From NCBI GenBank assembly GCA_050250415.1, contig JBFWOO010000003.1, positions 67,491-131,490 on the forward strand: DNA of 64,000 nt, in the 5' to 3' direction. Within the stretch, counting starts at the first letter, position 1, and each line of letters begins with the position of its first letter. Below are positions 43,624-47,634 of this stretch, piece after piece. A model generated the notes under the pieces. That model worked only from the letters and a program-made list of their open reading frames with translations. It did no database searches and was not told where the DNA came from. The translations under genes were made by a program, and so were the position numbers. The stretch is from Dehalococcoidia bacterium (lineage in GTDB: Bacteria > Chloroflexota > Dehalococcoidia > UBA2979).

Positions 43624-44613
43624 TCAGCGGTCGCGGACGGCGCGCTCCGACGGCTCCCCGCGCAGCCAGCGGGCGACCTCCTCGAGGAAGATCGCGTCGA
43701 TGCGCGGCCACGCGCCGGCGGACCGCGCGGAGTCGTGCGGGCTGAGGATCACGTTCGGCAGGTCCCAGAGCGGCGAGTCCGCGGGGAGCGGTTCCGGGTC
43801 GGTGACGTCGAGGTAGGCGCCCGCGATTCGTCCGGAGGCGAGCCGTTCGATCAGCGCGCCCTGGTCGACGATCTCGCCGCGCGAGACGTTGATAAAGACC
43901 GCGCCGGCCGGGAGCAGGTCGAGCGCGGCAGCGTCGAGCAGCCCTCGGGTCTCCCCGGTCAGCGGAATCGTGCTCACGAGGATGCCGGTGCGCGGCAGCA
44001 CCTCGGCGAGGCGGCCGGGTGGCAGCCACTCGTCCACGCCGTCCTCGGGGCCGGCGGGCGAGCGGCGCACGCCGACGACGTGGATGCCGAACGTGCGCGC
44101 GTATCGTGCGACGAAGCCGCCGATCGCGCCGAGACCGAGGATCACCATCGTCTGCTCGCCGAGGACGGGCGGCTGCTGGTCCGGCGGCAGCTCGCGCGGC
44201 GTCTGCTCCCAGGCGTGGCGGCGCTGCGCCTCCAGCCAGGCGGGGATGCCTCGGTTGAGCGCGAGCAGCCCGGCGATCGCGCTCTGCGCGATCGGCTCGG
44301 CGGCGAGGCCGGCGGAGTTCGTCACGGTGACCCCGCGGTCCATGAGCTCCTGGAAGATCGGGTCGTCGGCGCCGGAGTGGCCCATGTGCAGCCAGCGCAG
44401 GTTCGGCGCGCGTCGCGCCGCGCCGAGGATCCGCCGCGAGGCGACCGGCCCGGATGCGACGTTGAAGAACGCCGCCTCGAGCCGTTCCATCACGTCCGGC
44501 GGGAGAACGGCGCCGTCTCCCTCGGGCGAGGCGATGACCTCGAGGCCATCGAAGGCGGCGAGCTGGTCGTGGAGGCGGGCGGCGATGTCGGCAGGGACGA
44601 GGATCGTGGGCAT
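43624..44613 (-). CDS. D-2-hydroxyacid dehydrogenase (NAD-binding) family
   Basis: GLGAIGGFVARYA Rossmann motif and …SRGEIVD…SPHDSA… catalytic motifs. Confidence 0.85.
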   Translation of the reverse strand: MPTILVPADIAARLHDQLAAFDGLEVIASPEGDGAVLPPDVMERLEAAFFNVASGPVASRRILGAARRAPNLRWLHMGHSGADDPIFQELMDRGVTVTNSAGLAAEPIAQSAIAGLLALNRGIPAWLEAQRRHAWEQTPRELPPDQQPPVLGEQTMVILGLGAIGGFVARYARTFGIHVVGVRRSPAGPEDGVDEWLPPGRLAEVLPRTGILVSTIPLTGETRGLLDAAALDLLPAGAVFINVSRGEIVDQGALIERLASGRIAGAYLDVTDPEPLPADSPLWDLPNVILSPHDSARSAGAWPRIDAIFLEEVARWLRGEPSERAVRDR

Positions 44614-44669
44614 CGTCCGAGGATACCGGGCGTCGTGTCCGCGGCGCCCGGCGGCGGTATCGTGCCGCC

Positions 44670-45116
44670 ATGGCGCGAGCGACCACGCGGGATCAGGGCA
44701 ACTTCTTCGAGCCGACCTCCTGGCAGGAGATGGTGTCGGCGTGCGCGCAGACGGCGCTCGACCTCGGACTCGACGTGGAGACCGAGGTGTACGTGGGGCG
44801 CCGGATCTGGGGCGCGCGACGTCGCATCGACCTCGTCGTGACCGACCTCGGGGAGCGGCGTTCGCTCGGGATCGAGGTGAAGTACCAGTCCTCGCGCGGA
44901 TCGGCGGAGGAGAAGATCCCGAGCACGATCGACGACATCGCCGCGTGGCCGATCCCCGGGATCGTGGTCTTCCACGGCCCCGGCTTCAGCGGTCACATGC
45001 GGTCGTTCCTGAGCGCGTCCGGGAAGGCCGTCGAGCTGAGCGAGCTGGAGACGTGGCTGCGGCTCTACTTCGTGATCCCCGTGCGTCGCTCCGGGTTCGC
45101 GGAGGCCGAGGGCTAG
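44670..45116 (+). CDS. Small PD-(D/E)xK nuclease-fold protein (candidate restriction endonuclease)
   Basis: 148 aa. …RRIDLVVTDLGERRSLGIEVKYQ… fits the D…(D/E)xK catalytic core. Strong GC3 bias. It converges on a Dam-class methyltransferase gene with a 11-bp gap. Confidence 0.5.
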   Translation: MARATTRDQGNFFEPTSWQEMVSACAQTALDLGLDVETEVYVGRRIWGARRRIDLVVTDLGERRSLGIEVKYQSSRGSAEEKIPSTIDDIAAWPIPGIVVFHGPGFSGHMRSFLSASGKAVELSELETWLRLYFVIPVRRSGFAEAEG

Positions 45117-45127
45117 CGTCGGAACGG

Positions 45128-46036
45128 CTACTTCGCGCGGGCGGACTCGAGGGCGCGGCGCTCTTCCTCGGGCGGGTAGTTCATCGCGATCAGCTCGTCG
45201 ATCGCGCCGCGGCGGTCGCCGCGCGAGTTGATCGCGCGGCGGGCGAGTGTTGTCTCGAGGCGGTAGCGGGTGCCGCGGCGGCCGAGCGTGCCGCGGTCGG
45301 CGGAGTAGAGGCCGAGGATGTAGTCCTGCGCGGAGTTCGAGAGCATCACGCGGACGCCCCGCTCCGTGAGGTCATCGATCGCCCATTTGAGGCGCTGTTG
45401 CTCGTCGCGGTCGAAGGCGCCCTGCGTGTAGCCGGTGAACGACGAGGTCTTCGAGAGCGGCTCGAACGGTGGGTCGAGGTAGACGAAGTCGCCGGCCTGA
45501 GGCGCGCGGAGCGCCTCGGCGAAGTCGGCGCACGTGAGTTCCACCTCGCGGAGGGCGTCAGAGGCATCGCGCAGGCCCTGCGGGTCGAGGATGCGTGGCG
45601 AGCGGTACTTGCCGTGGGGGACGTTGAACTCGCCGCGGCGGTTCACCCGGTAGAGCCCGTTGAAGCAGGTCTTGTTCAGGAAGATGAACCGCGCGGCGAG
45701 GTCCACGCGGCCGCCCGGCTGGCGGCTGCGCTCCGCGTAGTAGAACTCCGACCGCTGCTCCTCGCCCGCCTCGAGGTACGCCTCGGAGAGCGCGCCGAGC
45801 GCTTCGATCAGCGCAGCGACGTCATCACGGACAACCTCGTACACGGTGACGAGGTGGCGGTTGAGGTCGTTGAGGACGGCGCGCTTCGGGGCCAGCTCGG
45901 GGTTCGCGAGGAGCCCGAAGAACATCGCGCCGCCGCCGAGGAAGGTCTCGTAGTAGGTGCCGATCTCGCGCGGCGCGCGGGCGATCAACGGCTCCAGGAT
46001 CTGGGACTTGCCGCCGGCCCACTTCAGGAACGGCCG
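45128..46036 (-). CDS. Dam-family (D12 class) N6-adenine DNA methyltransferase; 5' end and start codon unresolved
   Basis: …FVYLDPPFEP (the DPPY-type motif IV), …FFLNKTCFNGLYRVNRRGEFNVP…, and upstream in the same frame RPFLKWAGGKSQILEPLIARAPREIGTYYETFLGGGAMFFGL (motifs X and I). The six-frame ORF begins only at TTG 45988, but the FLKWAGGK motif lies in-frame further upstream with no ATG/GTG/TTG before the TGA at about 46187. Confidence 0.8.
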   Translation of the reverse strand, partial: RPFLKWAGGKSQILEPLIARAPREIGTYYETFLGGGAMFFGLLANPELAPKRAVLNDLNRHLVTVYEVVRDDVAALIEALGALSEAYLEAGEEQRSEFYYAERSRQPGGRVDLAARFIFLNKTCFNGLYRVNRRGEFNVPHGKYRSPRILDPQGLRDASDALREVELTCADFAEALRAPQAGDFVYLDPPFEPLSKTSSFTGYTQGAFDRDEQQRLKWAIDDLTERGVRVMLSNSAQDYILGLYSADRGTLGRRGTRYRLETTLARRAINSRGDRRGAIDELIAMNYPPEEERRALESARAK

Positions 46037-46416
46037 AGCGGACGCCGCGCGGCCCCCGGCGCCGTCCTCGACGCCTGCGCCAGCTCCCGGGCGCTCGGGG
46101 CGCTCGGGCTCGTCGGACGCCTGGGCGGCGTGAGCGGTGGCAGGCCGGGCAGCGATGGTGGCGCGCTCCGAGTCCGTTGGGCGTGGTCATCGAGTGGGTC
46201 GAGGGGAGTGCGCCGATTCTACCGGGCGGGATCCTTCACCGCGAACCGTGCGGCGGCAGCCTCGGGGCGCGGGAGGCGGGCCTGACCACGAAACATGGAA
46301 GTAACACAGGCGACACTCCGACGACATTGAGCGCAGACATTCTCGCCACGCGGACGAAATGCAGCGCGATCGACGCGCGCGCACACCGGGAGGCCGTCCG
46401 CGAGGGAGGAGTCGGG

Positions 46417-47634
46417 ATGGATAGCGGACACACCGCGTGGCTGTTGATGAGCTGCGCCCTGGTGCTGTTCATGACGCCGGGGCTGGCGTTCTTCTACGGC
46501 GGCATGGTCCGCGCGAGGAACGTGCTGGCGATGCTCATGAAGAACTACGTCGCGATGGGCGTGGTCACGGTGCTGTGGGTGCTCGTCGGCGCCTCGCTCG
46601 CGTTCAGCGGCAACACGATGCTGGGCGACTACAGCGTCATCGGGAACTTCGACCTCTGGGGCCTGCGCGACCTGGGGCTGAGCAACGACCACTTCGGTCT
46701 GCCCTACCCGGACAACGTCCAGATGATGTTCCAGCTCACGTTCGCCATCATTACCCCGGCGCTGATCTCGGGCGCGATCGCTGAGCGCATGAAGTTCACC
46801 GCGTGGGCGGTGTTCGTCGCGATCTGGTCGCTGCTGGTCTACGTCCCGGTGGCGCACTGGGTCTGGGGCGGCGGGTTCGTGGGCGCCGACATCGAGGCGC
46901 TCGACTTCGCGGGCGGGCTGGTGGTGCATGTGAACGCGGGCGCCGCGGCGCTGGCGCTGATCATGGTGCTGGGCCCCCGCGTCGGTTTCCGCAAAGAGAT
47001 CATCCGGCCGCACTCGCTGCCGCTGACCGTCCTCGGCGCGGGCATCCTCTGGTTCGGCTGGTTCGGGTTCAACGGCGGCTCGGCGTTCGCGGCGGACGCT
47101 GCGGCGGGCAACGCCTTCCTCACCACGCAGGTCGCCGCGGCCACAGCCGCGACGGCGTGGATCATCGCGGAGGGCTTCACGCACGGGAAGCCGACGACGC
47201 TGGGGTTCGTCTCCGGCGCGGTCGCCGGCCTCGTGGCGATCACCCCGGCCGCCGGCTTCGTCGGGCCGCTGGGCGCGATGCTGCTGGGGCTGGTCGCCGG
47301 CGTGGTCTGCTTCTACGCGCTGCGGCTGAAGTTCATGTTCAACTTCGACGACTCGCTGGACGTGGTGGCGGTCCACCTCGTCGGCGGGATCATCGGCTCG
47401 CTGCTGCTCGGCATCCTGGCAGAGGAGGCCTACGGTGGCGTGGCGGGTAGCGTGGAGCAGTTCGGGCGGCAGGCGCTGAGCGTCGTGATCGCCCTGGTCT
47501 ACTCGTTCGTCGTGACCTTCGTCATCGCGAAGGCGCTGGACGCCGTCATGGGCATCCGCGCCTCCGAGGAGGACGAGCGCAGGGGTCTCGACCTGGCGCT
47601 CCACGAGGAGCAGTCCTACGTGATCGTGGAGTAG
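46417..47634 (+). CDS. amt: Ammonium transporter
   Basis: MDSGHTAWLLMSCALVLFMTPGLAFFYGGMVR… Amt/MEP signature and 11 TM helices. ATG at 46417 with GGGAGGA upstream. Confidence 0.9.
   Translation: MDSGHTAWLLMSCALVLFMTPGLAFFYGGMVRARNVLAMLMKNYVAMGVVTVLWVLVGASLAFSGNTMLGDYSVIGNFDLWGLRDLGLSNDHFGLPYPDNVQMMFQLTFAIITPALISGAIAERMKFTAWAVFVAIWSLLVYVPVAHWVWGGGFVGADIEALDFAGGLVVHVNAGAAALALIMVLGPRVGFRKEIIRPHSLPLTVLGAGILWFGWFGFNGGSAFAADAAAGNAFLTTQVAAATAATAWIIAEGFTHGKPTTLGFVSGAVAGLVAITPAAGFVGPLGAMLLGLVAGVVCFYALRLKFMFNFDDSLDVVAVHLVGGIIGSLLLGILAEEAYGGVAGSVEQFGRQALSVVIALVYSFVVTFVIAKALDAVMGIRASEEDERRGLDLALHEEQSYVIVE

Follow-up and report, generated by a model that had tools for sequence, protein, structure and literature searches.

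GATC-specific restriction-modification systems of the DpnII/MboI type, in which a D12-class, Dam-like adenine methyltransferase is encoded next to a Mg-type nuclease, are the closest described relatives of the gene pair reported here. We examined a window of 64,000 nucleotides (nt) from a Dehalococcoidia bacterium (assembly GCA_050250415.1, contig JBFWOO010000003.1, positions 67,491 to 131,490) in which an open reading frame (ORF) for a nuclease of 148 amino acids (aa) converges on a methyltransferase ORF of the opposite strand, with 11 nt between the two stop codons (Table 1). Our reading, which we hold to be reasonably probable, is that the two genes form an intact restriction-modification-type pair, probably specific for GATC, and that the methylase would start at a conserved near-cognate AUC or AUU codon behind a Shine-Dalgarno (SD) sequence. 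As in the DpnII/MboI systems, the methyltransferase is of the Dam-like D12 class (DpnM, or M.DpnIIA, itself a GATC enzyme, is its best solved relative at E 1e-50, followed by EcoDam), a nuclease gene of the Mg type adjoins it, and GATC is probably the target. The differences are nevertheless substantial: the DpnII/MboI nucleases have about 280-290 aa and belong to another family, whereas the nuclease here is a short member of PF20472 (PDDEXK_11), and the locus lacks both a second methylase and a C protein; in addition, its methylase start appears to be near-cognate, and the pair is chromosomal and seems to have been inherited vertically over a deep clade.

Other known systems resemble the pair in single respects. 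E. coli Dam and MutH likewise comprise a vertically inherited, scarce Dam and a small PD-(D/E)XK nuclease, but MutH is not adjacent to dam and is of another family and fold sub-type, and the window methylase reaches only 133 bits against the E. coli Dam equivalog model NF008152, below its cutoff of 441. With small homodimeric type IIP enzymes such as PvuII (157 aa) and with the Cfr10I/NgoMIV/BstEII structural lineage the nuclease shares only 8-17% identity and no sequence-level relationship; their recognition motifs cannot be aligned with it, and it is smaller than all of them. For the start codon the nearest parallels are infC (IF3) and pcnB, the only confirmed natural near-cognate (AUU) start cases in E. 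coli, which have an AUH start behind a normal SD, conserved in related genomes, and a low, potentially IF3-sensitive expression (10.1101/063800). Unlike these, the gene considered here encodes a DNA methyltransferase of a restriction-modification-like pair, its start would be AUC or AUU, and an IF3 effect is suggested by analogy. The locus is therefore of a known kind, a type II-like restriction-modification pair, and what is new is the uncharacterised family of tiny nucleases, the conserved AUC/AUU start proposed for the methylase, and the deep vertical retention.

Upstream, the methyltransferase frame runs open to a TGA (46189-46187), and between this stop and motif X (RPFLKWAGGK) it holds neither ATG nor GTG nor TTG. 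Motif X contains the equivalent of EcoDam K9 and must belong to the protein; in all homologues, those with canonical starts among them, the protein begins ahead of it. The first canonical in-frame codon is a TTG downstream of motif X, which is a gene-finder artefact and not a real start. A first-pass annotation, made from the letters of the window, had already remarked on the missing start, on an out-of-frame ATG at 46190 and on a run of five G residues (G5) between that ATG and motif X, all of which were confirmed in the sequence. It had left the choice between a frameshift or assembly error, a decaying methyltransferase, and a non-canonical start such as ATC. The comparative data favour the last of these, in a form conserved across the lineage. 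When we extended the methyltransferase frame of each relative upstream and read the codons between the upstream stop and motif X, there was no canonical start in the window or in four related loci (L007, L008, L009 and L011), all from independent assemblies, and the in-frame codon strings of the clade loci showed a conserved block, GGAGC(G/C)C...GCC-AT(C/T), that ends in ATC or ATT (ATY).

A frame-blind regular expression, GGAG-N(3-8)-CCAT[CT], run on the 300 nt upstream of motif X, gave a single match in each clade locus, 17 Dehalococcoidia/Chloroflexota loci in all, a total that includes L033 and L159, which were added later to the set. The ATY was in frame with motif X in 17/17 of these loci; the codon was ATC in 11 and ATT in six, and ATG or GTG in none. 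Its distance to motif X took ten different values (60, 63, 72, 90, 99, 105, 108, 120, 123 and 126 nt), and as all of them are multiples of three, the segment between ATY and motif X is translated. Upstream of the ATY the behaviour is different: GGAG stands 6, 7, 8 or 9 nt before it and is read as S-E-R, R-S-A or G-A-P depending on the locus, and as the spacer varies by non-multiples of three and puts GGAG in differing frames, the conservation is at the nucleotide level rather than the peptide level, with the spacing that an SD should have. GGAG with a spacer of 5-10 nt also precedes many other genes of the window, where it is the usual ribosome-binding site. Immediately after the ATY the clade loci keep a peptide of the form [A/P/V/S]-[A/P/S]-(A)-R-[P/R/A], with codon changes that are synonymous (CGA, CGG or CGC for Arg; GCT, GCC or GCA for Ala), a pattern that is consistent with coding that begins at ATY. 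The ATC of L011 comes six codons after a TGA, with only non-start codons between the two. Between the conserved -10 box and the ATC, none of the three frames of the L008 and L009 leaders offers an ATG, GTG or TTG.

From these comparisons, the methyltransferase of the window most likely starts at the ATC at 46156-46154 behind the GGAG at 46169-46166, which would give a protein of 342 aa with a 40-codon Ala/Pro/Arg-rich N-terminal extension ahead of motif X. In the basal syntenic relatives L002-4 and L022 the start is an ATG or GTG only 4-10 codons ahead of motif X, which indicates that the ATY start and the low-complexity extension of 20-42 residues were derived within the clade. Initiation at such codons has precedent, as AUC and AUU in E. 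coli initiate at 1-2% of the level of AUG and yield an N-terminal Met (10.1101/063800). Our search of the literature on non-canonical starts in restriction-modification methylases and on Dehalococcoidia Dam found nothing relevant. Public gene calls for the methylase of the clade range from 282 to 371 aa (L001, L002-L006 and L159), some starting at the Val inside FVKWAGGK and others far upstream, where they overlap the promoter; the methylase of this clade is systematically mis-annotated.

The identity of the methyltransferase is clear from profile searches, which bear out its first-pass assignment to the Dam-type N6-adenine enzymes: it matches positions 1-240 of the 253 in the PF02086 profile (E 2e-51), and TIGR00571 (dam) with 240 bits against a cutoff of 115. 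Motif X, FNGLYR and DPPF all lie in a single frame, and judged by its motifs the protein has the complete set of catalytic and AdoMet-binding elements. Because its best solved relatives, DpnM and EcoDam, are GATC enzymes, GATC is probably its target and the likeliest site.

The nuclease matches PF20472 with 64.4 bits (E 1.3e-17; gathering threshold 23.7), so the earlier impression that it had no obvious family match does not hold; the family itself is uncharacterised, and a literature search for PDDEXK_11 or PF20472 found no paper mentioning it. In a large protein collection the nuclease has 441 relatives at 57-93% identity, with PF20472 present in all 120 of those listed, and a profile search of 1.8 billion cluster representatives returned 456 matches at E <= 1e-3, which indicates that the family is small. 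Residues D54, E69, K71, Q73, E80 and E81 are invariant in 34 homologues, which also share an Arg-rich hairpin, YVGRRIWGARRRID. With distant viral members included, Ser takes the place of E69, and the residues that stay invariant are D54, K71, Q73 and those of the GxAEEKIP helix (E80/E81/K82). The resulting D...(E/S)xK...E-on-helix arrangement recalls that of Cfr10I and NgoMIV. The predicted structure matches Bax1, the Can2 nuclease domain, PspGI and MunI, with lower-scoring matches to many other type II enzymes of the Cfr10I/NgoMIV/EcoRII lineage. Foldseek supported the same fold and agreed on no specific family; no similarity to MutH or Sau3AI was found in sequence or fold. The fold, as modelled, is closest to that of type II restriction enzymes, and together with the conservation in homologues it sustains the PD-(D/E)xK core that had been proposed from the sequence of the window.

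The association of the two genes recurs well beyond the clade. In two Vicinamibacterales, an unclassified bacterium and several metagenome contigs the pair is co-directional, in either order, and both genes have ordinary ATG starts. A metagenome scan with the methylase, which recovered mostly generic Dam genes and two clade members and served as a background sample, showed PDDEXK_11 adjoining Dam in 6 of 78 unselected loci (37-48% identical to the query). Viral contigs hold 43 distant PF20472 members of about 140 aa, many of them on contigs of T4-like phages, where Gp59 and Kyanoviridae Gp96 are encoded nearby. A D12 methylase (PF02086) adjoins nine of these viral genes and PF01555 methylases flank four, while about 14 are followed by a PF05869 'Dam' of 168-170 aa with overlapping stop and start codons. 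These overlapping pairs (L115, L117, L123, L124, L127-L131, L133, L134, L141, L149 and L154) lie in a region of DNA metabolism, with DUF6267, Gp59, UvdE and PDDEXK_1 nearby. PF20472 is patchily distributed across phyla and phages, and its recurrent pairing, in all gene orders, with three unrelated families of adenine methylase is the behaviour of a restriction endonuclease that is blocked by the methylation in question. Each of the three partner families includes GATC enzymes, which also speaks for GATC as the site. In the T4-like phages PDDEXK_11 may be a phage-encoded nuclease that leaves the methylated DNA of the phage intact. The linked restriction-modification-type module put forward in the first-pass annotation is in this respect upheld, as the pair is linked in many genomes with differing gene orders.

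Within Dehalococcoidia the arrangement is far more stable. A scan of species-representative genomes found 21 loci, mostly in Dehalococcoidia/Chloroflexota metagenome-assembled genomes (MAGs), the rest being the two Vicinamibacterales, one Verrucomicrobiales and the unclassified bacterium. Wherever the flanks of a Dehalococcoidia-type locus are long enough, they show a Dam methyltransferase convergent with the nuclease, and across the clade the order Ldh_2-family dehydrogenase gene, nuclease, methyltransferase (minus strand), amt, glnK, glnD is kept. Identity to the window among the clade loci is 49-96% for Ldh_2, 65-90% for Amt, 46-72% for GlnD, 67-93% for the nuclease and 55-83% for the methyltransferase. 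In the window the pair is flanked by a 2-hydroxyacid dehydrogenase gene (43624-44613, minus strand) and by amt-glnK-glnD (from 46417, plus strand), as had been described beforehand. The comparison across loci indicates that the pair has been inherited vertically over a deep clade in a fixed neighbourhood, that it is not a recent insertion and that it is not a typical mobile module.

Three other explanations have to be weighed against this reading, two of which concern the start of the methylase. The frame could be damaged, either by a sequencing or assembly indel, for instance at the G5 run, that puts the ATG at 46190 out of register with the Dam frame, or through decay of the gene into a pseudogene beside an intact nuclease. 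The ATG does lie just upstream and one base out of frame, a homopolymer run stands between it and motif X, and the window is one base longer than L001 between the ATG and GACTCGGAG, where L001 has an in-frame GTG at a similar place; however, neither the ATG nor the G5 run is conserved in the relatives, and the ATG is absent or elsewhere in L008, L009 and L001, so we rejected a frameshift from either of them. A missing canonical start common to at least five independent assemblies excludes a local sequencing error, and the leaders of L008 and L009, free of canonical starts in all frames, exclude an upstream-ATG frameshift as a general mechanism. The ATG also has no SD, whereas the ATC has one, and the peptide in the frame of the ATG is Arg-rich, off-frame and poor in third-position GC. 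A decaying pseudogene was ruled out by the ratio of non-synonymous to synonymous substitution rates (dN/dS), which against the closest relatives is 0.19-0.29 for the methyltransferase (0.07-0.17 for the nuclease), and by the intact gene in relatives: both genes are full length in every relative whose contig extends far enough, and both are under purifying selection. The options of frameshift, assembly error and decay are therefore unsupported, and we regard a damaged frame as very improbable. Alternatively, the ATY could be an internal isoleucine codon, with the start elsewhere (at another upstream near-cognate codon or at lineage-specific GTGs), or the GGAGCGCGCC...ATC block could be a regulatory site in DNA or RNA. 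ATC and ATT are ordinary Ile codons, so that conservation of the codon alone would fit this explanation; some loci have an alternative in-frame GTG, which in L001 and L018 precedes the ATC by 6-7 codons and in L012-14 precedes motif X by 5; and pairing of the SD region with the leader CTCC and with bases after the ATY in several clades suggests an RNA element. Yet neither the GGAG-ATY spacing nor the frame upstream of the ATY is kept as a coding sequence would require, the stop in L011, six codons before the ATC, leaves only non-start codons between the two, no other near-cognate codon is conserved, and the leader of the window folds no better than shuffled sequence (z = -0.8). We consider an internal isoleucine quite unlikely.

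The remaining alternative accepts the genes as intact and differs on what they do. Under it the pair would be domesticated for housekeeping: Dam would mark GATC for strand discrimination, replication control or regulation, PDDEXK_11 would work with it as a methyl-directed nuclease (such as a MutH-like nickase of hemimethylated sites), and the weak AUY start would keep Dam limiting. Low levels of Dam are needed in E. coli, and a weak methylase start fits a limiting Dam. The order from Ldh_2 to glnD is kept although Ldh_2 falls to 49% and GlnD to 46% identity, and the linkage survives the insertion of two to three unrelated genes. The nuclease is strongly selected and better conserved than the methylase, both in the clade and across phyla (57-64% against 41-43%), and in several lineages it appears to be translationally coupled to a metabolic gene. 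GATC is not avoided either. Several of these observations count against our preferred reading, as do, for its start codon, the ordinary Ile codons and the alternative GTGs mentioned above. Vertical inheritance with housekeeping neighbours is atypical for selfish, mobile restriction systems, and so is the composition of the pair, whose G+C equals the local mean and is fully ameliorated; the nuclease is conserved as well as Amt and better than the methylase; it had no match in the plasmid and phage GenBank collections, its profile had none among PDB sequences at E <= 10, and no PADLOC model matches it; the window contains 526 GATC sites against 559 expected (ratio 0.94), with no signature of restriction avoidance; and one would not expect a restriction system to give its protective methylase a weak start. 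On the other side, PF20472 pairs with three unrelated methyltransferase families, including on contigs of lytic T4-like phages, where mismatch repair is implausible; its patchy spread across phyla and its varied gene orders are typical of restriction-modification cassettes; and its predicted fold has no similarity to that of MutH. On balance a housekeeping pair seems to us unlikely, and we retain the restriction-modification-type pair as the preferred reading.

Under this preferred reading, the PDDEXK_11 nuclease would act as a homodimer that cuts the unmethylated site. The dam leader would be transcribed from the conserved TAGAAT/TACAAT promoter, and translation of the methylase would begin at AUC in the window, or at AUU in some relatives, 6-9 nt after GGAG. 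The initiator tRNA would still place formylmethionine (fMet) at the AUY, and the product would be the 342-aa enzyme with its disordered N-terminal extension (20-42 residues over the clade). Since near-cognate codons initiate with a few percent of the efficiency of AUG, little methylase would be made, and by analogy with infC its synthesis could be sensitive to IF3.

The sequences upstream of both genes contain further conserved elements. Every clade locus has a TAGAAT or TACAAT some 45-75 nt ahead of the ATY, and this conservation points to a putative dam promoter, although a generic scan for sigma-70 promoters and terminators made no calls, this promoter included. A GATC stands in the promoter spacer of the window (46233-46230, minus strand); the distance from such a site to the -10 box downstream is 8 nt here and in L007, L008 and L009, and 11-23 nt in L001, L012-15, L021 and L159. 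We considered this site as a methylation switch and set it aside: it is kept in about ten loci, and through it the dam promoter might respond to its own methylation, but the signal is weak given that GATC occurs once per 122 nt in the window. Just 3' of the -10 box all clade loci have a conserved ACTCCCC or CCTCCCC at an equivalent position (46201-46212, minus strand, in the window), whose CTCC is complementary to the GGAG of the SD. The minimum-energy fold of the window leader pairs GGCGCACUCC with GGAGCGCGCC, and the SD region can pair with the CTCC at the 5' end of the leader and, in several clades, also with bases just after the ATY. An SD-sequestering hairpin or a 5' leader-SD pairing looked plausible by eye in three clades and was rejected on the fold statistics of the window leader given above; a single leader structure alignable across clades was not found, and an Rfam search of 44400-46500 gave nothing relevant. 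The divergent intergenic region between amt and dam also carries GAAAC-n6-GTAAC (46290-46305, plus strand; GTTAC-n6-GTTTC on the minus strand), conserved as GTTACATCCACGTTTC upstream of amt-glnK-glnD in L012-L015, L018 and L159, which looks like two half-sites for a GlnR-type nitrogen regulator.

At the start of the nuclease, the sequence TATCGTGC(C/G)G(C/G)(C/A/G)ATG is kept in the window and in L007, L008, L009 and L001, and its -10-like hexamer TATCGT suggests that the nuclease mRNA may be leaderless in this sub-clade. In the same sub-clade a lipoprotein-like gene and the 2-hydroxyacid dehydrogenase gene are inserted between the Ldh_2 gene and the nuclease. Elsewhere (L012-L015, L018, L021 and L025) the nuclease ATG overlaps the stop codon of the Ldh_2-family dehydrogenase as TGATG, an overlap that implies translational coupling of the nuclease to this metabolic gene. 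A few relatives have gained two to three unrelated genes in the gap where the 3' ends converge and have kept both genes of the pair; the intervals concerned are 1166-3988 in L021, 2963-5120 in L156 and 2978-5028 in L157, and one such insertion consists of Usp and MgtE, another of ChrB_N and an iron permease (OFeT_1). The junction between nuclease and methylase thus looks like a hotspot for insertions. The window has 71.5% G+C, and its low frequency of CTAG (observed/expected 0.46) is the usual universal bias.

Table 1. Features of the nuclease-methyltransferase locus, in window coordinates
Feature	Position	Strand	Remarks
-10-like hexamer TATCGT	44658..44663	+	6 nt upstream of the nuclease ATG
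PD-(D/E)XK nuclease, 148 aa, PF20472 (PDDEXK_11)	44670..45116	+	Core D54, E69, K71 and invariant GSAEEKIP helix
Nuclease core residues	D54 44829-44831; E69 44874-44876; K71 44880-44882	+	Helix E80, E81, K82
Dam-class (D12, alpha-group) N6-adenine DNA methyltransferase	45128..46156	-	Proposed coding sequence of 342 aa, from ATC 46156-46154 to stop 45130-45128
TTG, first canonical in-frame codon	45986..45988	-	Downstream of motif X; gene-finder artefact, not the real start
Motif X, RPFLKWAGGK	46007..46036	-	Contains the EcoDam K9 equivalent; must belong to the protein
Proposed non-canonical start ATC (AUC)	46154..46156	-	Only near-cognate codon between GGAG and the frame-constrained region
Shine-Dalgarno GGAG	46166..46169	-	9 nt upstream of the ATC; conserved in 17/17 clade loci
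ATGA	46187..46190	-	Out-of-frame ATG 46190-46188 overlapping the in-frame TGA 46189-46187; 5' leader, not a start
Putative dam promoter	46216..46245	-	-35-like TTCGCG 46245-46240; 18-nt spacer; -10 TAGAAT 46221-46216

Taken further, and more tentatively, these observations might be drawn together in one possible scheme, for which we would claim less than even confidence. PDDEXK_11 would be a family of methylation-sensitive GATC-type endonucleases of about 125-150 aa that bacteria and T4-like phages pair with any adenine methylase, and one Dehalococcoidia clade would have domesticated such a pair, with an AUC/AUU start, possibly sensitive to IF3, taking the place of dosage control by a C protein or antisense RNA. 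The methylase start would then be the third conserved bacterial case outside AUG, GUG and UUG, after infC and pcnB.

If our reading of the locus is correct, standard gene finders truncate or mis-start the methylase throughout the clade, so that the gene looks broken or orphaned, and recognition of the conserved AUC/AUU start would correct a set of MAG annotations. The same start would also be a rare natural example of a bacterial gene initiated at a near-cognate codon, with comparatively good support. As for the nuclease, PF20472 could then be regarded as a candidate for a new family of restriction endonucleases of very small size (about 125-150 aa), which is of practical interest; were the site GATC, E. 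coli Dam should protect against the nuclease, making tests easy. Lastly, a restriction-modification-type pair that has stayed in a single chromosomal neighbourhood over deep divergence, with a nuclease conserved at the level of housekeeping genes, would be a good system in which to study how selfish modules become domesticated.

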